From a virus (taxonomy: Duplodnaviria; Caudoviricetes), in IMG/VR virus record IMGVR_UViG_3300009031_000221, positions 256,001 to 320,000 of that record: a DNA stretch of 64,000 nucleotides; one strand, 5' to 3'. Numbering within the stretch: position 1 is the stretch's first letter; each line of letters opens with the position of its first letter. Below the pieces are notes generated by a model. The model saw only the letters and a list, made by a program, of their open reading frames with translations. It made no database searches and was not told the DNA's origin. The translations under genes were made by a program, and so were the position numbers. This document shows, one piece after another, positions 3,859 to 19,502 of the stretch.

Positions 3859-4401
3859 TCAAGCGCTAATCGACGCTTCCGGCAAATAAAATCCCTTCGA
3901 TCGAATTTCGGTCAGAACTGAGTTGGGGACCATCCCCTCTACCTCATGAATCCTGCCACTTCGGATGGAGTCCCGTACCAAGGTGCTTCGCTCTGGCCCC
4001 TGATCGGGAACCACTAGCAACTCTACCATCTTGGTAATGTCATCCCATCGGCGCCATTTGCTGTGGCACTCCAGGTTGTCAGGCCCAATGATCATTACGA
4101 ACTGGGCGTGGGTGTAATTACGGACAAGGAATTCTACGAAGTCCACCGTATAGGTGATATCGAGCGCCTTCTCCATACTGTTCACCCTGACGGGCGAATG
4201 CATTCCGAATACCTGTTCGATTGCGAGTGTTGTCATTCGCAATCGATCTTCAAACGGAAGCATGTCCTTACCGAATGAGTGCTTCCACGCAGGATGCACC
4301 CACAGAGAATCGAGGTTCCCTACAGCCATGGCATGAGTCATGACCTTCAGGTGCCCAATGTGTGGGGGGTTGAACGCCCCTCCATACAATCCGATCCTCA
4401 T
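3859..4401 (-). CDS. nadD: Nicotinate-mononucleotide adenylyltransferase
   Basis: GLYGGAFNPPHIGH (HxGH), R..M, IIGPDNL..W..W, STLVR. Confidence 0.88.
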   Translation of the reverse strand: MRIGLYGGAFNPPHIGHLKVMTHAMAVGNLDSLWVHPAWKHSFGKDMLPFEDRLRMTTLAIEQVFGMHSPVRVNSMEKALDITYTVDFVEFLVRNYTHAQFVMIIGPDNLECHSKWRRWDDITKMVELLVVPDQGPERSTLVRDSIRSGRIHEVEGMVPNSVLTEIRSKGFYLPEASISA

Positions 4402-4442
4402 TACATCGTCCTTGTGACCCCTCGCTCGGGGGCCACATTGGT

Positions 4443-4470
4443 ATCTACGCACTTCAGTCAGGAAGTAAGT
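4443..4470 (-). promoter_or_regulatory. Phage promoter motif upstream of nadD
   Basis: ACTTAC-TTCCTGACTGAAGTG-CGTAGAT. Confidence 0.8.
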
Positions 4471-5160
4471 CTACACCTCGAAATAAACCCCGACCTCAGT
4501 CAGACGGGCATATGCGTCACGGTCAAAGCTGTACATCTTCGCACCCTTACGTCCCGTAGCACTTGTCTCCCGAAGCACCCCGTAGTTCAGGATCTTGCGG
4601 CGAAAGTTCCGCCGATCGATGGGGCGTGCCAAGACAATCTCATAGAGGCGCTGCAATTCCAGCAACGTGAACTCCTTGGGCAGGAACTCGATGCCGATCG
4701 GATGCCACCGAATCTTGGCGCGGAGCCGCTTGATCCCCGTGGCGATGATCGCGGAATGGTCAAAAGCAAGGGGGGGAAGTTTATCTACCGACCACCACAC
4801 GGCTTCTTTCGCGTCGTCCGCACCTTTCACCGCAGCAGTCTTGATCAATGCCATGTATGCCATCGAGATGACACGACCGCGAGGGTCACGGTCGGGGTCA
4901 TCGAACAGTGCCAGTTGTTCCATATAGGAGGCAACGAGCCCTGTTTCCTCCCCAAGTTCCCGATGAACTGCGGCAAGGGAAGTCTCTTTCTTTCCGATAT
5001 CAACGAAGCCGCCGGGCAAAGCCCAGTGCCCGTAGAAGGGTTCCCCTTCCCGGCCACGGAGGATCAAGAGGATCTTCAGGGCGTGTTCGGCAAAGTCTAC
5101 GCCGAAGACAACGGCATCTACCGTGTGAGATGCTTGTTCATGTTTGTAAGTGAATGGCAT
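4471..5160 (-). CDS. nrtR: NrtR-family Nudix + winged-HTH regulator (ADP-ribose sensor, possibly active pyrophosphatase)
   Basis: TVDAVVF, WALPGGF, RELGEETGL, RDPRGRVIS, LAFDH, FTLLELQRLYE, DRRNFRRK. Confidence 0.92.
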   Translation of the reverse strand: MPFTYKHEQASHTVDAVVFGVDFAEHALKILLILRGREGEPFYGHWALPGGFVDIGKKETSLAAVHRELGEETGLVASYMEQLALFDDPDRDPRGRVISMAYMALIKTAAVKGADDAKEAVWWSVDKLPPLAFDHSAIIATGIKRLRAKIRWHPIGIEFLPKEFTLLELQRLYEIVLARPIDRRNFRRKILNYGVLRETSATGRKGAKMYSFDRDAYARLTEVGVYFEV

Positions 5161-5169
5161 TGGGTATCC

Positions 5170-5742
5170 TTACAGGAGGTTGAGGGCTTTGAAGATTTCC
5201 ATGTACACGTGATACTCATGATCCGTGAACATGACGAAGGTGATCTCATCCATGTCCCATTCATCCGCAAGGCAAGCGCTTGCCGCCGCGAATGCCCCCG
5301 TCGTGATCGGGCATCCGTAGATGCCGCAGGAAATCGCGGGGAATGCAATGGTGTAGATGTCGTGTTGCTTGGCGGTCTTGAGGCAGTTGAGGTAGGTATT
5401 GACCAGGGCGACTTCAGGCATGATGTCATCGGGGAGAATCTCACCCGGGCGGCTTTTGCCTTGGCGCTCGAAAACGGGGCCAACCGTATGCAGGATGCGA
5501 TGCACATTGAGGTCATGCCCGCCGGTAACCTTCACGTCGCTGATTTCGCAACGAACTCCATTGGTGACGGGGAACTTCTCGCACTCTTCGCGGAGACCTG
5601 GGCCTGCAGCACGATGAATGGCACCATCCACGCCACCCCCGCCTAGCAGGCTCGGATTGGCGGCGTTGACCACGGCATCGCCAGTGAACTTGGTAATGTC
5701 CCCTTGGATGATTCGAATGTTTAGGCCCGGGTTCCGTTTCAT
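5170..5742 (-). CDS. Macrodomain protein (YmdB-like ADP-ribose hydrolase)
   Basis: GDITKF.GDAVVNAANPSLLGGGGVDGAIHRAAG, HTVGP, AFPAISCGIYG. Confidence 0.95.
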   Translation of the reverse strand: MKRNPGLNIRIIQGDITKFTGDAVVNAANPSLLGGGGVDGAIHRAAGPGLREECEKFPVTNGVRCEISDVKVTGGHDLNVHRILHTVGPVFERQGKSRPGEILPDDIMPEVALVNTYLNCLKTAKQHDIYTIAFPAISCGIYGCPITTGAFAAASACLADEWDMDEITFVMFTDHEYHVYMEIFKALNLL

Positions 5743-5776
5743 GGTTGCTCCTGGGAGGCAGTGCCCCCAACGATAT

Positions 5777-5804
5777 GTCTACGCCGGTAGATCATAAAGT
5801 AAGC
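5777..5804 (-). promoter_or_regulatory. Phage promoter motif upstream of macro-nrtR
   Basis: GCTTAC-TTTATGATCTACCGG-CGTAGAC. Confidence 0.75.
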
Positions 5805-6393
5805 CTTCCCCGTAGGCTTTTGCCGGATGATGTTGAACGGCAATGCCAAGACTAGGCTGAATCGGGGTATCCTTGATTGGGCCTTCTTGCATGCCGTGCC
5901 GCCGATGCTGGAAGCAGTCGCTAGTAAGGCTGCCATGCGCCATGATGCCATAGGCACGGACACGCCCATGCCATCTACCGTTGACATTGACGCAGTGCCC
6001 TACGTCCCCTGACTCTCGTTTGAACCAACCACAGTCATTGCATGAACCATCGATTTCCTGCATCCATATGATGTGTTCCTTGTAGAGCGGGCGGCAACCC
6101 TTATGGATGAGGAACCACGTAGGCCACCAATATCCTGCAAGGATGTCCGCTTCGGACCTATCGGCAACGGGTTCACTGCACAGGTAGCATTGCGTGCCTG
6201 ACCAGACTGCCCAATTACGTTGACCTTGGATCCAAGCCAGGACATGGGGCTTCTTGCCGTCCTTCACCTCGAGTTCCCGGGCGACCTCAGAATCTTCAAC
6301 CCCACGACGTGCCATCTGGCGTTCGGTTTCAGGATCCGTGCCGTCAAAGACAAGGTTGAAGAATCTATCCCGGTCATTCTTGGTGTCTATCAT
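5779..6393 (-). CDS. Hypothetical protein with CxxC motifs
   Basis: 204-aa ORF in operon orientation. Confidence 0.65.
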   Translation of the reverse strand: MIDTKNDRDRFFNLVFDGTDPETERQMARRGVEDSEVARELEVKDGKKPHVLAWIQGQRNWAVWSGTQCYLCSEPVADRSEADILAGYWWPTWFLIHKGCRPLYKEHIIWMQEIDGSCNDCGWFKRESGDVGHCVNVNGRWHGRVRAYGIMAHGSLTSDCFQHRRHGMQEGPIKDTPIQPSLGIAVQHHPAKAYGEGLLYDLPA

Positions 6394-6980: not shown

Positions 6981-8726
6981 CTACTTCATCTTCAGTTTGA
7001 GCACCTTGTTGCCCTGGTATGCAACAAGGGATCCGGCATGCTTTGCCAGGATCATATCACTGGACAGGGCTTTGTCTTCCACCGTCTTGACGGACGGTGA
7101 CCCCTTACGTACGGAGAACATTTCGAGTTTGTCATCCTCGTTGAGGCAAATGCACACCCCGTTATCCAGTGTGACGAAGTTCAAGTCCATGAGGCTGCTA
7201 GGGACAACCCGCACGTCATAGGTGTCATCGGAATCGAACCGGAACACTTGACGATCGTACTTGCCTGCCTTTTCCGTAAGCACCATCAGGACGCCTTTGT
7301 CAAACTTGGCGTATACGATACGGAATCCGTCAAGTTCATTGACGCGAACCTGATGGGCGGATCCCGAATTCACGAACATGGAAACGTAAGTCGCCCCAAG
7401 CATGGATTGAATGGCCACGCCAGAGTACATATGCGTAGCGTGAGGCATGACATTTGCCACGGCCTTGGTAGATGCAATCACCTGTGCCCCAGCATCCGTC
7501 AGGATAACCTCATGGATCTGTTCATTCGTGCGGACGTAGATCCGACCGTCATAGGACATGGCATCTTTCACGTCCAAATCAAACGGGATTACCGCACGAT
7601 CGCTCAAGTTGTACAACATGAGCTTGGTTCCCTGTATCCCGCCAACCACCGCCCGATTGGCCTTATTGGTATGCCCACACACGGACACATGGCTAAATGG
7701 AACCGGGACAAGGCCATTGCCCAGATACACCTGGGTCGTTGTCGTCATGACGGGATTGCCCCCAGGAATCGTGCTGCCATACAACCCCGTAACAGGGAAC
7801 GGCAAGTCCCACAATTCCGAGATGTCGATGAGCGCTCCCATAATCGCTTTGACCGTCGGGACGAACATGATAACGCCCGTCATTCCCGCAGTGTGTGGGG
7901 GGATGCACCGCTTGCCCTGGACAAACATCGCTTCGTACCATTGCAGGTATTCACGGGGGATAGCGGTCAAGGGATAGGCGGAAGTTGGAACCCCAACTTC
8001 CGGATGCATGACTGAGATGTTCCCCTTCATGCGGCGCCGGGTGACGGCAAACGCATCATCATCCGGGTCTGTAGGAAGCTTGCCCCGGAATTCCGCTTTT
8101 GATCCGTGGTACTTGCCACGGTATGGATGGATGCCCATGAACATCTGGAAGGACAGGATGCCAAAGGAATACCAGTCCGACAGGGTCGTCCATTGGTGTC
8201 CCTGAACGGACCAATCCCGAATGGATTCCATGATTGCTTGTGTGGGGTAGCCCTTTGTCTGGTAGCTATCCACGTCGATGAAGAACACGTCATCGAACTT
8301 CTTGGGAACCATGAAGTTCATTTCGTTCAGGTCAACGATCAATGTGCCAGTTTGGTGAATGCCGTTGATGCTTTCCTGCATCTTGGCAACCAACTCAAGC
8401 ATCATGTCCTGGGTGATACCTTCCCGGTCACGGAAGGCACGCGGGAACAACTGGCATAGAGGATAACCCCCATCGATGAAACGCATCGTGTAGCCCACGA
8501 CAGCGCCCTTGGCGTCTACCAGCATGTCCTGTGGACGAATGACCCGGGGATCTTTGATGGCAGCAAGCTCATGGAACTTGCCAAGAGGGATCATCTTGGA
8601 AGGGTCGTGGTAGATCTTGTATGCCGTATGGCCCTTGACATAAACGGAACCTTCTCCCCCTTGGGCGAGGTAATCCTTTTGTGTCAAGTCAACGGTAATG
8701 CCTGACCCTTTGATGAATACCTTCAT
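6981..8726 (-). CDS. Ser/Thr kinase-like protein (YegI/TerY-P type) with C-terminal beta-rich region
   Basis: LAQGGEGSVY, AYKIY, H....IVDLNEMNF, FIDVDSYQ, SDWYSFGIL.FQ...GIHPY.G. Confidence 0.85.
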   Translation of the reverse strand: MKVFIKGSGITVDLTQKDYLAQGGEGSVYVKGHTAYKIYHDPSKMIPLGKFHELAAIKDPRVIRPQDMLVDAKGAVVGYTMRFIDGGYPLCQLFPRAFRDREGITQDMMLELVAKMQESINGIHQTGTLIVDLNEMNFMVPKKFDDVFFIDVDSYQTKGYPTQAIMESIRDWSVQGHQWTTLSDWYSFGILSFQMFMGIHPYRGKYHGSKAEFRGKLPTDPDDDAFAVTRRRMKGNISVMHPEVGVPTSAYPLTAIPREYLQWYEAMFVQGKRCIPPHTAGMTGVIMFVPTVKAIMGALIDISELWDLPFPVTGLYGSTIPGGNPVMTTTTQVYLGNGLVPVPFSHVSVCGHTNKANRAVVGGIQGTKLMLYNLSDRAVIPFDLDVKDAMSYDGRIYVRTNEQIHEVILTDAGAQVIASTKAVANVMPHATHMYSGVAIQSMLGATYVSMFVNSGSAHQVRVNELDGFRIVYAKFDKGVLMVLTEKAGKYDRQVFRFDSDDTYDVRVVPSSLMDLNFVTLDNGVCICLNEDDKLEMFSVRKGSPSVKTVEDKALSSDMILAKHAGSLVAYQGNKVLKLKMK

Positions 8727-13853: not shown

Positions 13854-13904
13854 GGTATTTGTCCTTCTATCTATGTCCCCCGGAGGGGACTGTTGCTACC
13901 TGCT

Positions 13905-13932
13905 ATCTACGAGGATGTCCCGTAAAGTAAGC
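13905..13932 (-). promoter_or_regulatory. Phage promoter motif upstream of pncA-like gene
   Basis: GCTTAC-TTTACGGGACATCCT-CGTAGAT. Confidence 0.8.
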
Positions 13933-13937
13933 CTTGC

Positions 13938-15029
13938 CTAGATGCCGTAATCGGCGAAGTTGTCCGACAGGATGCCCTTCATAACCAGATCCGTACGGCA
14001 ACCCAACTGCGGGATGTTGGGATTGAGCTTGTGGCGGGTCTGCTTCTCGGCTTTGCGGGCACCCTTGAGCAGTGCCTCGAGTTGATCGTAGCCCAGCCCC
14101 GCATCCTTGAAAGCGTCACTGAAGACCGCACGACCCAACAAGTCCCGCATATCCTCCTGCGACAGGGTATCCCCGAACAGGACATCCTCGTTGGTCTTGC
14201 AATCCAGGATGATGTTCGAAACATTCTCATCCAGGAACCGGGCCACCCGCTCGATGGTGCCGATCTTGTAGACCTTGCCGGTGTCAGGATCGAGCTTGCC
14301 GTACGTGAACGCAGCGCCTGTCCAGTTCTTGATCTCCGACTCATCGTTGTGGGTGTCACCATTGCCCCACAGGTCCGCCGAAGGGATGGCACCGATGGTT
14401 TCCGCATAGGCAGCCTTGGCGCCCGTGTTGCCATTGTAGCCCTCAAGGGTTTCGCCCAGCTCGAAGCACAACTGGTAGACCTCGGCCTTCGAGAGCATCG
14501 CAATGGGGTTCGAATCCACTTCCCCATCGCCACCCTTCTGGTAGAAACGCAGGAAGCGATCCTCGCACTCGTTGCCCGTACCGTGACGAATGCCGCCACC
14601 CGTAATGCGGTTGTAGCCACGGCCAAGCGGGGCACGCAGGCACGAACGAACGCTACCCAGGATGGTCGGGTCGGCAGCGAGGCGGGCTTCAATCTCCGCC
14701 ATGTCGAATCCCGCCGCCTGCAAGGTGCGCTTGATCTCCGCAAGGATCGTGTTGTAGGACTCCGTGAAGTCGCCAACCGCCAACTTGCAACCCAAGGCAT
14801 TCGCAAGGCGAATCGCCCGGGCGGTCTGGACGGGATTGGAGTTGATGGCGAGGTGCGCCAACGTGACGTTCTCGGCACCCTGTGCAATCACGAGAAGTCC
14901 CGCCAAGGCAGCGGAATCGATGCCGCCGGACAAGTCCAACTCGGCACGCAAGATGCCCGCATCGGCATGCATCTTGCGAATGGCATGAACACGATTTTGC
15001 AATAGGGCTTTGGGATTCAAAACTGGCAT
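13938..15029 (-). CDS. nadE: NH3-dependent NAD+ synthetase
   Basis: LSGGIDSA PP-loop, N/S.R..LR, GTGNECE, FYQKGGDG, PIAMLSKAEVY, PSADLW; no glutaminase domain. Confidence 0.9.
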   Translation of the reverse strand: MPVLNPKALLQNRVHAIRKMHADAGILRAELDLSGGIDSAALAGLLVIAQGAENVTLAHLAINSNPVQTARAIRLANALGCKLAVGDFTESYNTILAEIKRTLQAAGFDMAEIEARLAADPTILGSVRSCLRAPLGRGYNRITGGGIRHGTGNECEDRFLRFYQKGGDGEVDSNPIAMLSKAEVYQLCFELGETLEGYNGNTGAKAAYAETIGAIPSADLWGNGDTHNDESEIKNWTGAAFTYGKLDPDTGKVYKIGTIERVARFLDENVSNIILDCKTNEDVLFGDTLSQEDMRDLLGRAVFSDAFKDAGLGYDQLEALLKGARKAEKQTRHKLNPNIPQLGCRTDLVMKGILSDNFADYGI

Positions 15030-15069
15030 GGGGCAATCTCCTTTTGTGTGGCGGTATTCGCCTTGTGTT

Positions 15070-15097
15070 AGCTACGCAGGCACTGGGAAAAGTAAGT
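15070..15097 (-). promoter_or_regulatory. Phage promoter motif upstream of nadE
   Basis: ACTTAC-TTTTCCCAGTGCCTG-CGTAGCT. Confidence 0.8.
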
Positions 15098-15990
15098 CAC
15101 ATAGGGTGTAATGTTTTCACCTGAATCAGGGCAGGAGCCAACTCCGCAGCTTTACGGGCATTCGGATGGCTATCGGTAACGATGATCTGGTCAATGCATG
15201 ACTTGCGGAATTTTTCAACCGCATTCCCTACGAAGACCCCGTGAGTTGCGGCGCACCTAACAGTCAAGGCACCGCGATCCTTGAAGGCCTGGGCTGCTTT
15301 GATCATCGATCCACCCGTAGCAATCATGTCATCAAAGATGACCACATTGCATCCATTTACGTTATCGCCAAGGACGTTCAGGATTTTGGTTTCCGAACCG
15401 GACAGGCGCTTCTTCTCGATGTGTGCAAATCCAACGCATGCAGCATCCGCCAACTTCTTGGCCTCATACACACCGCCATCGTCTACCGTGGCATATACGA
15501 GAGGGTGGACAGGCTGATCCATCCGGGTACTGCGAATCGCACGCTCGAGTAATGGACGGTAGATCAGGTTCTTCGTGACAACCGGGCCTTCAAAGTAGTG
15601 GAGGACGAGATCCTTGTGGAGTTCCACGAAGTACAACCGGACGCCAGGGAATACATTGCCCAGGCCCGACCATTGACGGGCTTGGAACTTCGCCAGTGCC
15701 GCAAATTCGCCGTCTACCCGTTCGGAACGGGCATGGCGGAAGTAGGTGTTGATCACAGAGAAACGATGTGGCCCTTGGCTGGCAATCTCATACGCCGCTG
15801 CCAAGAACAGTTCCGATGCTGCAGCCGAAGAACATTCGCCAATCAAGCAGATTTCGTCGTCAGGGGAGATCATCGGAATGGATACCGCATTCTCCCCATC
15901 CGGGAAGGTCTTGATGACAACCCGGTTGTCGTAGCCAATGTTAGCCCCATAAGGGATCGAATCCGGCATGTAGATATTACGCAGTGCCAT
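15097..15990 (-). CDS. prs: Ribose-phosphate pyrophosphokinase (PRPP synthetase) family
   Basis: FPDGE, YFRHARSER, VELH, D.GG, KKR, IFDDMIATGGS, ATHGVF. Confidence 0.88.
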   Translation of the reverse strand: MALRNIYMPDSIPYGANIGYDNRVVIKTFPDGENAVSIPMISPDDEICLIGECSSAAASELFLAAAYEIASQGPHRFSVINTYFRHARSERVDGEFAALAKFQARQWSGLGNVFPGVRLYFVELHKDLVLHYFEGPVVTKNLIYRPLLERAIRSTRMDQPVHPLVYATVDDGGVYEAKKLADAACVGFAHIEKKRLSGSETKILNVLGDNVNGCNVVIFDDMIATGGSMIKAAQAFKDRGALTVRCAATHGVFVGNAVEKFRKSCIDQIIVTDSHPNARKAAELAPALIQVKTLHPM

Positions 15991-16002
15991 GACGGTAGCT
16001 CC

Positions 16003-17457
16003 TTATCCCAGGTTGGCCTGGATTTGGTCCTCAATGGCCTGTGTCATCGGGGAGAGGGATGTAATGATGTTGCGGGGTTCATCGAAGTCGTAGCAACTGA
16101 TGGGGTGGTAATTCTCCACGGTCTCGCCTTCCTGAGCGATGAGGTGAATCAAGTCCCCGCCGAAGCCATAGATCTCCAGGATGACCGGTTTGCCGGTGAT
16201 GCTCTTCTTACCCTTCGATCCCGAGAACTTCTGCTTGGGATCCCCCGCCGACATCGCCAACTTGTACGCCGCCGAAGCCACGTCCCGGTTGTAAGGGGTC
16301 AAAGCCGGTTGCGACGTGAAGAATCCACCGTAGCCGTACAACCGCTTCTCCCGAGGCCAACCGTGGGAATCGCAGAAGGCTTCGTTCTTGGCGGTCTTTT
16401 CCGCATTGTAGCTATCCTCGAAGGGCAGCATGGGGTAGATACCCAGCTTGTCGCAGCCCTCTTTGATCAGCAAGAACTGTTGATCCTGATCCCCCGAATC
16501 GAATCGCATCGAACATGGACGATCCGGGTCTTCCGCCATGACTTCCAGGGCAGCGGGGATACCCTTGTTCATGGGGTCGGTTGTATCGAACAGGTAGGAT
16601 GGAGGCTCCGGCCGCATGTCACGGATAGCACGGTAGCCATGACGGTCATCCGCATTCTTGCCCCCCCACCGCATTTGGTGCTCATGCCCCGTCGTACCGA
16701 CCGGAATCATGTACAACTTCCATGCTCCGAAGACGTTGGAAGTCTTGCGAATGCCGAGGTTCTCGCACAACTGCAACACCATCAGGTGCTGCTGCATGCA
16801 GGTTGCCGCCCGAAGGCCAACCTCAAATGCCCGATGTGCGTCACCCTTCAGAGCAGCGATGACCGCCTGAATGTTGGTCTTCACACGGGCAAGGTATCCT
16901 TCCGTATCCATGGTGATATGGATCTCGATATCCCGACCCAGCATAGCGGCGACCGCATCGCGAGAGGCCAGAACGATATCCGCTTCATCTTGGCAAGTTA
17001 CCGTGAATTCGGTTTCCCCCTTCTTGATTGCCGTGGCAATCTGGATGGGGTACTGCAGCATGATCATCTTGTCTTCCAACCAGGACACCAAGAAGGATGC
17101 GCCACGGTTGGTCAGGACGGGTTCGCCCTTGCCAATCCATGCACCCTTGGGCGGGCACACGACATGAACAGGGCGCTGCAATGCCATATCCATTGCCGTG
17201 GTCATGGGGTAGCCATTCGCCGTCAGGAACCCCGCCTCTTTGGTGGATGGCAGGGACGGAAGCATGAACTGCACGATGGCATTCAGGTCGAAGGGATTGT
17301 AGAACGGCCCGCCCCTACGGAAGCAAAGGGCGAAGATTTCCTCCCGGAGCGGGAACCCTGCCTGTGCCATGGCAAGCTTGTAGGCATCCACCATCAAGGC
17401 AGACGCCTTCTCCTGGCCTAGGATTGCTTTGGCGATTCGATATTCGATGGACTCCAC
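16003..17457 (-). CDS. pncB: Nicotinate phosphoribosyltransferase (PncB type)
   Basis: DAYKLAMAQA, EVGLRAA, TSNV, GTTGH, LFDT, RFDSGD, AYKL; GTG start after AGGAGGT. Confidence 0.85.
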   Translation of the reverse strand: MESIEYRIAKAILGQEKASALMVDAYKLAMAQAGFPLREEIFALCFRRGGPFYNPFDLNAIVQFMLPSLPSTKEAGFLTANGYPMTTAMDMALQRPVHVVCPPKGAWIGKGEPVLTNRGASFLVSWLEDKMIMLQYPIQIATAIKKGETEFTVTCQDEADIVLASRDAVAAMLGRDIEIHITMDTEGYLARVKTNIQAVIAALKGDAHRAFEVGLRAATCMQQHLMVLQLCENLGIRKTSNVFGAWKLYMIPVGTTGHEHQMRWGGKNADDRHGYRAIRDMRPEPPSYLFDTTDPMNKGIPAALEVMAEDPDRPCSMRFDSGDQDQQFLLIKEGCDKLGIYPMLPFEDSYNAEKTAKNEAFCDSHGWPREKRLYGYGGFFTSQPALTPYNRDVASAAYKLAMSAGDPKQKFSGSKGKKSITGKPVILEIYGFGGDLIHLIAQEGETVENYHPISCYDFDEPRNIITSLSPMTQAIEDQIQANLG

Positions 17458-17474
17458 TCCGCACCTCCTGGTAT

Positions 17475-17514
17475 GTGTGTATACAGGACACACTGTATCG
17501 TGTCAAGCGGACAC
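17475..17514. promoter_or_regulatory. Tandem palindromes matching the NrtR operator core GT-N7-AC
   Basis: GTGTGT-ATACAGG-ACACAC (17475-17493) and GTGT-CAAGCGG-ACAC (17500-17514) between promoter and pncB RBS. Confidence 0.6.
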
Positions 17515-17535
17515 ACCAACAAATCATCCTAGGAC

Positions 17536-17563
17536 ATCTACGCAGACGGTGTGAAAAGTAAGT
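17536..17563 (-). promoter_or_regulatory. Phage promoter motif upstream of pncB-prs
   Basis: ACTTAC-TTTTCACACCGTCTG-CGTAGAT. Confidence 0.8.
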
Positions 17564-17576
17564 GTGGCCTTGTCAG

Positions 17577-17604
17577 GCTTACTATTCGAAAGTTCAGCGT
17601 AGAT
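17577..17604 (+). promoter_or_regulatory. Phage promoter motif (divergent partner) upstream of ardC-like gene
   Basis: GCTTAC-TATTCGAAAGTTCAG-CGTAGAT. Confidence 0.8.
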
Positions 17605-17639
17605 GATATGTGGCACGGATGATGCCGAGGAGACGGACG

Positions 17640-18560
17640 ATGGCAACGAAAACATTCGAGAAGCGTGACCATTACGCAACGGTCACGGATCAGATCGTGG
17701 CAGCCCTGGAAAAGGGTGTGGCGCCGTGGGTGTGCCCGTGGGACAAATCGCAAGGGATGCCGCACAATGGCTCCAATGGCCATCAGTACCAGGGCATCAA
17801 CGTGTGGCTGTGCTGGGCATCTGGTTTTGCCGATGCCCGCTGGTATACGTTCAACCAAGTTCGCGAGTTCGGCGAGTCATGCGTCCGCAAGGGCGAGAAG
17901 GGCACGCACATCGTCAAGTGGCTGTTCCTGGACAAGGACGAGACGAATGCGGATGGCAATGCCGTCAAGCGGCACATCCCCATGCTCCGCACCTTCGTGA
18001 TCTTCAATCACGCCCAAATCGATTGGGAGGCGGGCAAGGAGCCCAAGCTGCCGGAAGCAAAGCTGGAATTCGACCCGGCTACGGTGTGTGCGGGTGCCGC
18101 ATCGCTGTTGGGGAAATCGGGTGCCAAGGTTGAGCATGGCGGGGCACGGGCTTACTACAGCCCGAGTCAGGACAGCATCACCTTGCCGGTGACTTCGACC
18201 TTCAATACGCCGGAAGGCTATTGGGCAACTATGCTGCATGAGTTGACTCATTGGACGGGTCACGAAAGCCGTTGTGATCGCAACCTGTCTGGCCGGTTTG
18301 GCAGCCACATGTATGCCGCTGAGGAACTCGTGGCGGAAATGGGTTCGGCGTTCCTGTGTGCAGAACTGAAGATTCAGGGCGGGTTGCAACACCCCGAGTA
18401 CATCGCTTCCTGGATCAAGTGCCTCCAGGGTGACAAGTACGCCATCTTCACGGCGGCTCGCCTGGCAAAGGAAGCGGCGGAGTTCCTCAAGGGCGCCAAT
18501 GCCGAGGATGATACGGCGGAACCGGAAGCAGGCGTTACGGAAATGGACCAAGTCGCCTAA
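17640..18560 (+). CDS. ardC: ArdC-family antirestriction protein (ssDNA-binding + zincin-like domain)
   Basis: LEKGVAPWVCPW, YQGINVWL, WYTFNQ, VRKGEKG, AYYSP..D.I.LP, HELTHWTGH, YAAEELVAE. Confidence 0.93.
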   Translation: MATKTFEKRDHYATVTDQIVAALEKGVAPWVCPWDKSQGMPHNGSNGHQYQGINVWLCWASGFADARWYTFNQVREFGESCVRKGEKGTHIVKWLFLDKDETNADGNAVKRHIPMLRTFVIFNHAQIDWEAGKEPKLPEAKLEFDPATVCAGAASLLGKSGAKVEHGGARAYYSPSQDSITLPVTSTFNTPEGYWATMLHELTHWTGHESRCDRNLSGRFGSHMYAAEELVAEMGSAFLCAELKIQGGLQHPEYIASWIKCLQGDKYAIFTAARLAKEAAEFLKGANAEDDTAEPEAGVTEMDQVA

Positions 18561-18565
18561 TAGAG

Positions 18566-18593
18566 ACTTACTTTCCCCTGCGACAGCGTAGAT
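18566..18593 (+). promoter_or_regulatory. Phage promoter motif
   Basis: ACTTAC-TTTCCCCTGCGACAG-CGTAGAT. Confidence 0.8.
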
Positions 18594-18629
18594 GATACGT
18601 GCCCCGCATGGGGTTAATGAAGGTCGCAG

Positions 18630-18899
18630 ATGAGCAACATTGGATGGCCCGCAGCACGCGAACCGAACAATCCCGCACACGTATTCTACATGTACGGAAT
18701 TGCGGGCAACCCTAACGGCGAATGGGAACTTGTTGAGAACAAGCGGGAATGGACGGCAAACGGAAGCCGCAGCCTGTCCGATCGCTTCATGGGCACAGTC
18801 TACGGCAATGGCAAGAAAGGCTGGCAGAAGGCCAATGCCGCCCTGTCAACGATGAACAAGGACATCAAGCGTCCTGCTACTTGTCCTGCGGATCACTGA
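18630..18899 (+). CDS. Hypothetical protein
   Basis: Follows promoter motif. Confidence 0.6.
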   Translation: MSNIGWPAAREPNNPAHVFYMYGIAGNPNGEWELVENKREWTANGSRSLSDRFMGTVYGNGKKGWQKANAALSTMNKDIKRPATCPADH

Positions 18900-18929
18900 T
18901 CCGTGAACAAATGTAAATAGAGGTCAATC

Positions 18930-19502
18930 ATGCGTGGATCATCCGCACACATTTCGTTGCGTCAGCACCGCAACAACGCGCCCAATCTCCTATTGCCCGA
19001 ATTTCAGCGGGGCATCGTGTGGACTGCCGAACAGGTCATGTCCCTGATCGATTCCGCCGAACGGGGCTACCCCTTGGGGCAGTTGCTTGTGTGGGAGGTC
19101 TACGAGGGTTCTATCCGCCGGCAGTACGTACTGGACGGTCAGCAACGCCTGACCGCTCTGACGGGTCGCAAGGTCGGGGAAACCCAGGCAACTTGGGACG
19201 TGTGGTTTGACATGGATGCCAAGGGTTGGGTGCTGGGCAAGCCGAAGCGGGGTTTCCCGCTGTGGCCTATGGACAACCCCATGGATGATTTGCACGTCAT
19301 GGAGGAGGCCGGGATATTCACCGATCCCTATGGGAAGCAAGCGTGCCAACGTCGGGATGACCTGAACTACTGCACCAACTTCCCGGCCTTTGTGGTCGAA
19401 GGTGGGACGACCCAGGATGTGTTGGAAATGTTCCTGCGGATCAATACGGGCGGAACTCCTTTGGATCCCAAGTTGGTTCAGTGGCTGAAGGAAAAGAAGT
19501 AG
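18930..19502 (+). CDS. Stand-alone DUF262 (GmrS/ParB-like) protein
   Basis: PEFQRGIVW, GYPLGQLLVW, LDGQQRLTAL, MFLRINTGGTPL. Confidence 0.88.
   Translation: MRGSSAHISLRQHRNNAPNLLLPEFQRGIVWTAEQVMSLIDSAERGYPLGQLLVWEVYEGSIRRQYVLDGQQRLTALTGRKVGETQATWDVWFDMDAKGWVLGKPKRGFPLWPMDNPMDDLHVMEEAGIFTDPYGKQACQRRDDLNYCTNFPAFVVEGGTTQDVLEMFLRINTGGTPLDPKLVQWLKEKK

Follow-up and report, generated by a model that had tools for sequence, protein, structure and literature searches.

A conserved pair of palindromes in a huge phage probably serves as tandem operators of a phage-encoded NrtR ahead of a NAPRTase-like/prs unit

Repressors of the NrtR family typically bind 21-bp palindromes with a GT-N7-AC core that lie on a promoter or between the promoter and the start codon (PMC2330246). 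In Shewanella oneidensis, prs-nadV is preceded by tandem operators; the NrtR protein (SoNrtR) binds both operators and is released by ADP-ribose (Rodionov et al. 2008, PMC2330246). The effectors vary within the family and comprise ADP-ribose (ADPR), NAD in the case of NdnR of C. glutamicum and L-arabinose in the case of AraR (PMC4666351). BtAraR of Bacteroides thetaiotaomicron occupies two 21-bp sites that are 3 bp apart, with one dimer covering about 25 bp and two complexes appearing in EMSA (Chang et al. 2015, PMC4666351). For phages, an enzyme set termed NARP3 has been described that restores NAD+ and thereby acts against NAD+-depleting defence; the report in question describes no transcriptional sensor and refers to NrtR solely as a regulator of bacteria (PMC13464706). 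A limited literature search for NrtR in connection with phages likewise yielded no description of a phage-encoded NrtR switch, NrtR being treated as a bacterial regulator. A preprint reportedly presents NARP1 and NARP2 as further phage enzymes that rebuild NAD+ and counter NAD+-depleting defence.

The locus compared to these systems here lies in a window of 64,000 nucleotides, by which we mean the whole stretch of DNA that was analysed, corresponding to bases 256001–320000 of a 536,053-bp virus record. Like Shewanella prs-nadV, it combines a repressor built of a Nudix plus a winged-helix domain with two adjacent palindromes before an operon of prs and a nicotinamide/nicotinate-type phosphoribosyltransferase. 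Unlike the Shewanella system, it is virus-borne, its transferase is divergent and NAPRTase-like instead of NadV, its box has another sequence, a second, phage-type promoter is found upstream, and binding and effector are predicted. With BtAraR it shares tandem 21-bp sites, which are 24 bp apart from centre to centre in BtAraR (3-bp gap) and 23 bp apart in the phage (2-bp gap), whereas BtAraR senses L-arabinose, controls sugar genes and has a cleft filled by Phe36, Leu67 and Gly89, where the phage protein holds Gly, Glu and Arg. Bacterial regulons with the box TTAGTGT-N7-ACACTAA resemble the phage locus in core, in the 23-bp tandem spacing and in the order -35, site 1, -10, site 2, but their commonest target is nrtR itself (autoregulation), whereas the only target in the phage is the NAPRTase-like/prs unit. 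From NARP1 (Adps, a PRPS-like ADPR pyrophosphorylase, + Namat) the locus appears to differ in that its enzymes resemble canonical Prs and a NAPRTase relative. An assignment of the pair to Adps and Namat is conceivable but found no support, as the matches of a PDB search were confined to canonical Prs (4e-25) and, weakly, a NAPRTase (6e-4), the presence of Adps/Namat chains in that PDB set being unconfirmed. Mechanistically, the locus would be nothing unusual among NrtR regulons of the kind known from Shewanella prs-nadV, its distinctive traits being carriage by a huge phage and its relatives, a single target and two promoters. Its features are the following.

17532–17567, minus strand: copy of the phage-type promoter motif ACTTACTT-N11-GCGTAGATG, located upstream of O1 and O2 (PWM score 34.4)
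17500–17514, minus-strand reading GTGTCCGCTTGACAC: distal candidate operator O1 with the core GTGT-N7-ACAC, arms and position kept in 16 related loci
17501–17506, minus strand: -35-like hexamer TTGACA, overlapping the right arm of O1
17475–17493: proximal candidate operator O2, a perfect 6-N7-6 palindrome GTGTGT-N7-ACACAC with the core GTGT-N7-ACAC at 17477–17491
17478–17483, minus strand: -10-like hexamer TATACA inside O2, 17 bp after the -35-like hexamer, the usual final T being absent
17464–17469, minus strand: ribosome-binding site AGGAGG, 6 nt ahead of the GTG start at 17457
16003–17457, minus strand: divergent NAPRTase-family phosphoribosyltransferase of 484 residues, first gene of the putatively regulated unit (TIGR01513, 2.8e-15, below cut-off)
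15097–15990, minus strand: prs, ribose-phosphate diphosphokinase, second gene of the unit (TIGR01251, 2.7e-39, above cut-off; canonical Prs structures, 4e-25)
15066–15101, minus strand: phage-type promoter ahead of nadE, no operator
13938–15029, minus strand: nadE
13901–13936: phage-type promoter ahead of the pncA-like gene, no operator
5773–5808, minus strand: phage-type promoter ahead of the macro-domain gene and nrtR, no operator
5170–5742, minus strand: macro-domain gene
4471–5160, minus strand: nrtR, encoding the proposed repressor, Nudix domain followed by the NrtR winged helix (Pfam NrtR_WHD PF21906, 4e-19; NUDIX PF00293, 4e-15)
4439–4474: phage-type promoter ahead of the nadD-like gene, no operator
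3859–4452, minus strand: cytidylyltransferase-like gene, named nadD in an earlier sequence-only reading

The palindromes had been recognized in this sequence-only reading, in which they were interpreted as tandem NrtR-type operators before pncB-prs. Both were found exactly where the reading had placed them, between the phage-type promoter motif and the AGGAGG ribosome-binding site, and the nrtR gene it had named is real as judged by its two Pfam domains. The NrtR-type operators gained good support from the comparison (16 relatives and bacterial boxes), while the gene behind them is a divergent NAPRTase-family enzyme and not a canonical pncB. This protein gave no Pfam match and a weak match to the NAPRTase structure 2f7f (6e-4) in the PDB, and its homologues are labelled nicotinate phosphoribosyltransferase by their sources. 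The family counts hundreds of homologues, many of them on contigs of 100–530 kb, and its substrate is putative. Beyond nadE, the NAD island continues with a vWA/PP2C/kinase block and a thioesterase gene, followed by the macro-domain gene, nrtR and the cytidylyltransferase-like gene, and the presence of nadE together with pncA-like and nadD-like genes favours the Preiss-Handler route.

The operators sit within a divergent intergenic region of 185 bp, to the right of which runs an ArdC-like gene. On the minus strand, O1 reads GTGT-CCGCTTG-ACAC (17514–17500), and its 21-bp footprint would span 17497–17517. The core of O2 reads GTGT-CCTGTAT-ACAC (17491–17477) on the same strand, and its extended form GTGTGT-N7-ACACAC is unique in the 536-kb genome. 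The centres of O1 and O2 are 23 bp apart with a linker of 8 bp between the cores, which lie 16 to 55 nt ahead of the GTG start codon of the NAPRTase-like gene. A mechanical list of open reading frames sets this start at 17493, which we rejected because the Shine-Dalgarno sequence and the alignment of homologues place it at 17457. Measured against described NrtR operators, both sites are inverted repeats of about 21 bp whose GTGT-N7-ACAC core contains GT-N7-AC, they are located on or behind a promoter ahead of the start codon of an NAD-metabolism gene, the same genome encodes a cognate NrtR, and the sites recur before orthologous genes and at other members of the regulon.

The phage-type promoter upstream of the operators belongs to a widespread class. 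The element GCGTAGATG occurs in 37 exact copies genome-wide, mostly ahead of genes, and the bipartite motif gives about 127 PWM matches above 12 bits, usually 35–50 nt before a start codon; further copies in the window are found, for example, at 17573–17608 and 18562–18597 on the plus strand and at 15066–15101 and 934–969 on the minus strand. Behind such promoters, a GGGCA...TGCCC hairpin is a frequent feature of the leader, as is a ribosome-binding site of the AGGAAC type. From this promoter, the leader of the NAPRTase-like gene measures about 77 nt compared to the usual 35–50 nt. The two palindromes also contain the hexamers TTGACA and TATACA, the latter of which is missed by a simple consensus scan because such a scan requires a T at position 6. 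A TTGAC-like -35 and a TAnnnn -10 element separated by 16–18 bp recur in 20 of the 26 distinct loci with tandem operators, in three registers relative to the sites, which argues that the embedded sigma-70-like promoter is real and would be occluded by proteins bound at the sites. The sequence-only reading had placed the sites behind the phage promoter; they do lie downstream of it, but they do not merely form a roadblock, as they overlap the conserved sigma-70-like promoter TTGACA-17-TATACA. Taken as a whole, the reading was partly supported: the comparison speaks well for its tandem NrtR-type operators, its pncB and its placing of the sites simply behind the phage promoter had to be revised, and its ADP-ribose switch is presumptive.

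Beyond this reading, two observations were made, namely the sigma-70-like promoter under the sites and the operator-free phage-type promoters at the other NAD genes. That no equally good sites precede nadE, pncA and nadD had been claimed before, and a genome-wide scan for pairs agreed in finding none comparable. Operator control thus appears to be confined to the NAPRTase-like/prs unit, and nrtR appears not to be autoregulated, since the promoter of the macro-domain gene and nrtR lacks an operator. In four related loci (L031, L038, L041 and L046), an element resembling GCGTAG/AGTAGT lies between the operators and the start codon, and the window has its phage-type promoter on the upstream side of the operators. 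Hence, the order of the two promoters may differ between phages.

We asked how often such sites would arise by chance. Single GTGT-N7-ACAC sites are uninformative in this respect: the window holds two of them compared to 0.72 expected, a count of at least two was reached in 17 of 100 shuffles, and the whole genome of 536 kb contains three sites compared to about 4.7 expected from tetramer frequencies. The single-site count was therefore rejected as evidence. In contrast, a pair at a spacing of 22–24 bp occurs only once in the 536 kb, even if two mismatches in total are allowed, and by our own estimate from tetramer frequencies a perfect pair would be expected about 1e-4 times per genome. It is the pairing, not the number of single sites, that is significant. 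The third genomic site (450374–450388, outside the window) lies about 70 nt inside an open reading frame of 226 codons (450306–450986, plus strand) and was treated as a chance occurrence.

As relatives we considered loci that encode a homologue of the regulated protein, to which a metagenome scan added 80 loci. The regulated protein has many homologues, several of which are encoded on contigs of 100–530 kb that share the gene order. Across 71 distinct homologue loci, which amount to 847 kb, 34 of the 44 GTGT-N7-ACAC sites fell within 135 bp upstream of the homologous gene, that is, into 1.1% of the sequence. Conservation in related phages had been named as a check on the palindromes, and the pair was indeed present at 22–24 bp in 16 distinct related loci, the proteins of which are 40–67% identical to that of the window, with N7 loops, linkers and flanks that vary freely. 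A pair and an NrtR in one and the same locus were observed in L039, L047 and L055, and we infer that L010, L013 and L014 also carry NrtR, since NrtR homologues of 79%, 74% and 56% identity, respectively, have longest contigs that agree in length with the contigs bearing the regulated gene. A relative with 57% identity has a short leader devoid of palindromes and no NrtR in the 37 kb around the gene, which, within these 37 kb, fits a joint absence of operators and NrtR. Searches at or near identity gave no counterpart: positions 15000–19000 had no match among 50,697 phage records, the double operator had no exact-pattern match in IMG/VR, and a peptide-pattern scan of IMG/VR for NrtR returned no confirmed match.

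This type of control is not universal, since many homologous loci are devoid of the GTGT pair or possess other palindromes in its stead, and some are without any. Other paired palindromes are found in more distant loci such as L015, which encodes an NrtR and in which TAGTGG-N7-CCACTA is present twice at a distance of 23 bp (about 7910–7960). L009 holds TAGTAT-N7-CTACTA plus TCGTAG-N7-CTACTA (about 3925–3975), and in L027 and L029 ACCCCT-N4-AGGGGT occurs twice upstream of the homologous gene, 23 bp apart and flanking a TTGACA. As these loci hold different paired palindromes in the same place and at the same spacing, the comparison suggests that operator specificity may have shifted inside one conserved layout. 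L016, a locus of 21.5 kb without operators before the gene, contains three GTGT-N7-ACAC sites inside coding regions (at 384, 8741 and 11234) compared to 0.33 expected.

The phage NrtR is encoded by a single gene in the 536-kb genome and possesses the build of its family, an N-terminal Nudix domain fused to a C-terminal NrtR-type winged helix. Its best match in the PDB is AraR (5bs6, 1.4e-36), and SoNrtR (3gz5) is matched at 2.1e-29; both alignments span the two domains, covering residues 14–219 for AraR and residues 12–201 for SoNrtR. The NrtRs of GTGT-type loci have the helix motif D-x-R-N-F-R-x-K/R in common, and in L015, with its TAGTGG arms, the N of this motif is replaced by T. We also collected 47 bacterial loci via NrtR alone (Planctomycetota, Verrucomicrobiota, Myxococcota and others), in which 36 GTGT-N7-ACAC sites were found compared to 7.5 expected. 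By our own count, 24 of the 36 sites are located no more than about 110 bp ahead of nrtR, frequently arranged as tandems spaced by 23 bp, with the box TTAGTGT-N7-ACACTAA and the layout TTGACtta-GTGT-N7-ACAC-TAnnnnTA-GTGT-N7-ACAC-taa. Seven of the remaining sites are located ahead of six canonical NAPRTase genes (pncB) or one NAMPT gene (nadV). The pair is conserved in the relatives, and bacteria that possess an orthologous NrtR show the same box just ahead of nrtR, pncB and nadV, so that the GTGT-N7-ACAC motif tracks NrtR.

For SoNrtR, structures are available as 3GZ5, 3GZ6 and 3GZ8, and the phage protein shares the loop length GG-x7-E of 3GZ5. SoNrtR contacts ADPR via Tyr10, Phe15, Arg41, Asn43, Lys76 and Arg98 (PMC4666351). 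According to our alignment, the phage NrtR keeps Arg41 as R35 and Arg98 as R94, and the positions of Asn43 and Lys76 are taken by Gly and Glu. The ribose contacts Arg86 and His131 of AraR are likewise kept (R91 and H135), and Gly, Glu and Arg replace the residues Phe36, Leu67 and Gly89 that close the nucleotide cleft in AraR. From E59 on, the Nudix box is complete (E59-x7-R67 E68 L x E71 E72 x G L; E-x7-RELGEETGL), for which reason the phage NrtR may hydrolyse its ligand. In many NrtRs, the catalytic part of the Nudix signature is lost. The phage protein may hence both sense and hydrolyse ADP-ribose.

From the sites, their conservation, their cross-genome link to nrtR and the promoter layout, a model for binding, repression and effector can be proposed. 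The palindromes are probably operators of the phage's own NrtR, which would repress the NAPRTase-like/prs unit and be released by a nucleotide arising from NAD+ breakdown, ADP-ribose being the most probable one. Two NrtR dimers would sit side by side on O1 and O2, 23 bp apart, where they would cover both the -35 and the -10 element of the sigma-70-like promoter and would also obstruct transcripts coming from the phage-type promoter just upstream, with repression of the two-gene unit as the outcome. Binding of the nucleotide to the Nudix domain would detach NrtR from the DNA and thereby turn on the unit. The nadE, pncA-like, macro-domain/nrtR and nadD-like genes would stay outside NrtR control through their own phage-type promoters. 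As the promoter of nrtR itself is unregulated, the repressor has to be synthesized once infection is under way, and at the outset it is missing unless a host NrtR of equal specificity substitutes for it. The unit would therefore be open at first and shut down later, save when the ligand is there or a host NrtR has acted beforehand. With ADP-ribose as the presumed inducer, the operon would be turned on only when a defence NADase fires. That the virus in this way senses the NADase activity of host immunity via ADP-ribose, the product of NAD+ destruction of the Sir2/TIR type, and turns on the costly PRPP-consuming step of NAD+ rebuilding only under attack, as an inducible counter-defence, is a possibility that we put forward tentatively. 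The phage NrtR could in addition reset the host's own NAD-salvage regulon, since bacterial NrtRs use the same box.

A different signal would leave the operators of this model in place. Instead of ADP-ribose, NAD+ (or NaAD or NADP) might act as a co-repressor as in NdnR of C. glutamicum, or another ribose-containing ligand might be bound, in which case the operon would follow the NAD+ level or another metabolite instead of the NADase product. The family offers precedent for this, with ADPR, NAD and L-arabinose among its effectors (PMC4666351) and with SoNrtR being released in vitro by NaAD, NADH and NADP as well (PMC2330246); two of the four alignable ADPR-contact positions differ in the phage protein, and its best PDB match is the arabinose-responsive AraR. 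We nevertheless consider such a signal rather unlikely, as the Arg residues that hold the phosphate and ribose of ADPR in SoNrtR are kept, the residues closing the AraR cleft are not, and the regulon serves NAD salvage like those of the ADPR-responsive members. More doubtful still is a reading in which the palindromes are mainly bound by another protein, be it a host NrtR with identical specificity or some unrelated regulator, and the phage NrtR acts elsewhere, for example on host promoters or in the hydrolysis of ADP-ribose. Bacterial NrtRs that are 44–53% identical to the phage NrtR do use the same GTGT-N7-ACAC core, so that cross-talk with a host regulator is possible, and the retained Nudix box would suit a hydrolase; however, site-carrying phage relatives encode their own NrtR, and the recognition-helix motif is common to phage and bacterial GTGT-type NrtRs. 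Operators of NiaR (TGT-N4-ACA or ACA-N5-TGT) or NadR (TGTTTA-N6-TAAACA) were rejected because the spacing in these boxes does not match the N7 found here and the genome contains no NiaR-type (3H domain) gene.

The inverted repeats could also act at the level of RNA, as hairpins in the 5' leader that affect stability or processing or function in a riboswitch-like manner. They do fall inside the transcript expected from the upstream phage-type promoter, and other leaders of this genome carry a hairpin. Folding of the leader was, however, no better than that of shuffled sequences (MFE -22.8 kcal/mol, z +0.43), the arms are always GTGT/ACAC in 26 loci with no compensatory changes, and many loci have their first site in the spacer between -35 and -10, upstream of any transcript start. 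On the grounds of the z value and of arms that never covary, we rejected a leader structure, which seems to us extremely improbable. The single-site count in the window, which is not significant on its own, would be compatible with palindromes that are there by chance or that persist as a functionless relic of a horizontally acquired bacterial gene. This explanation is very hard to reconcile with a pair whose spacing and position were retained although the regulated proteins are only 40–67% identical and the surrounding DNA has diverged.

The preferred reading, in which the phage's own NrtR represses the NAPRTase-like/prs unit, bears on how phages handle NAD+. In a huge phage, as in more than a dozen of its relatives, a bacterial repressor has been kept together with paired operators on one promoter, which suggests that counter-defence metabolism may be regulated by a metabolite signal and that the phage may rebuild NAD+ on demand. 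If ADP-ribose were not the ligand, the locus would still be a clean example of a regulon that a virus has taken up complete with promoter and operators. The bacterial comparison in turn fixes the box (TTAGTGT-N7-ACACTAA) and the targets (nrtR, pncB and nadV) of one NrtR subfamily across several phyla. In one of these bacterial loci, L101, whose contig was binned as Candidatus Riflebacteria, a PP2C phosphatase gene (132–1310) is immediately preceded by a GTGT-N7-ACAC site at 98–112. This site recalls the vWA/PP2C/kinase block of the phage NAD island, which has its own promoter and no operator.
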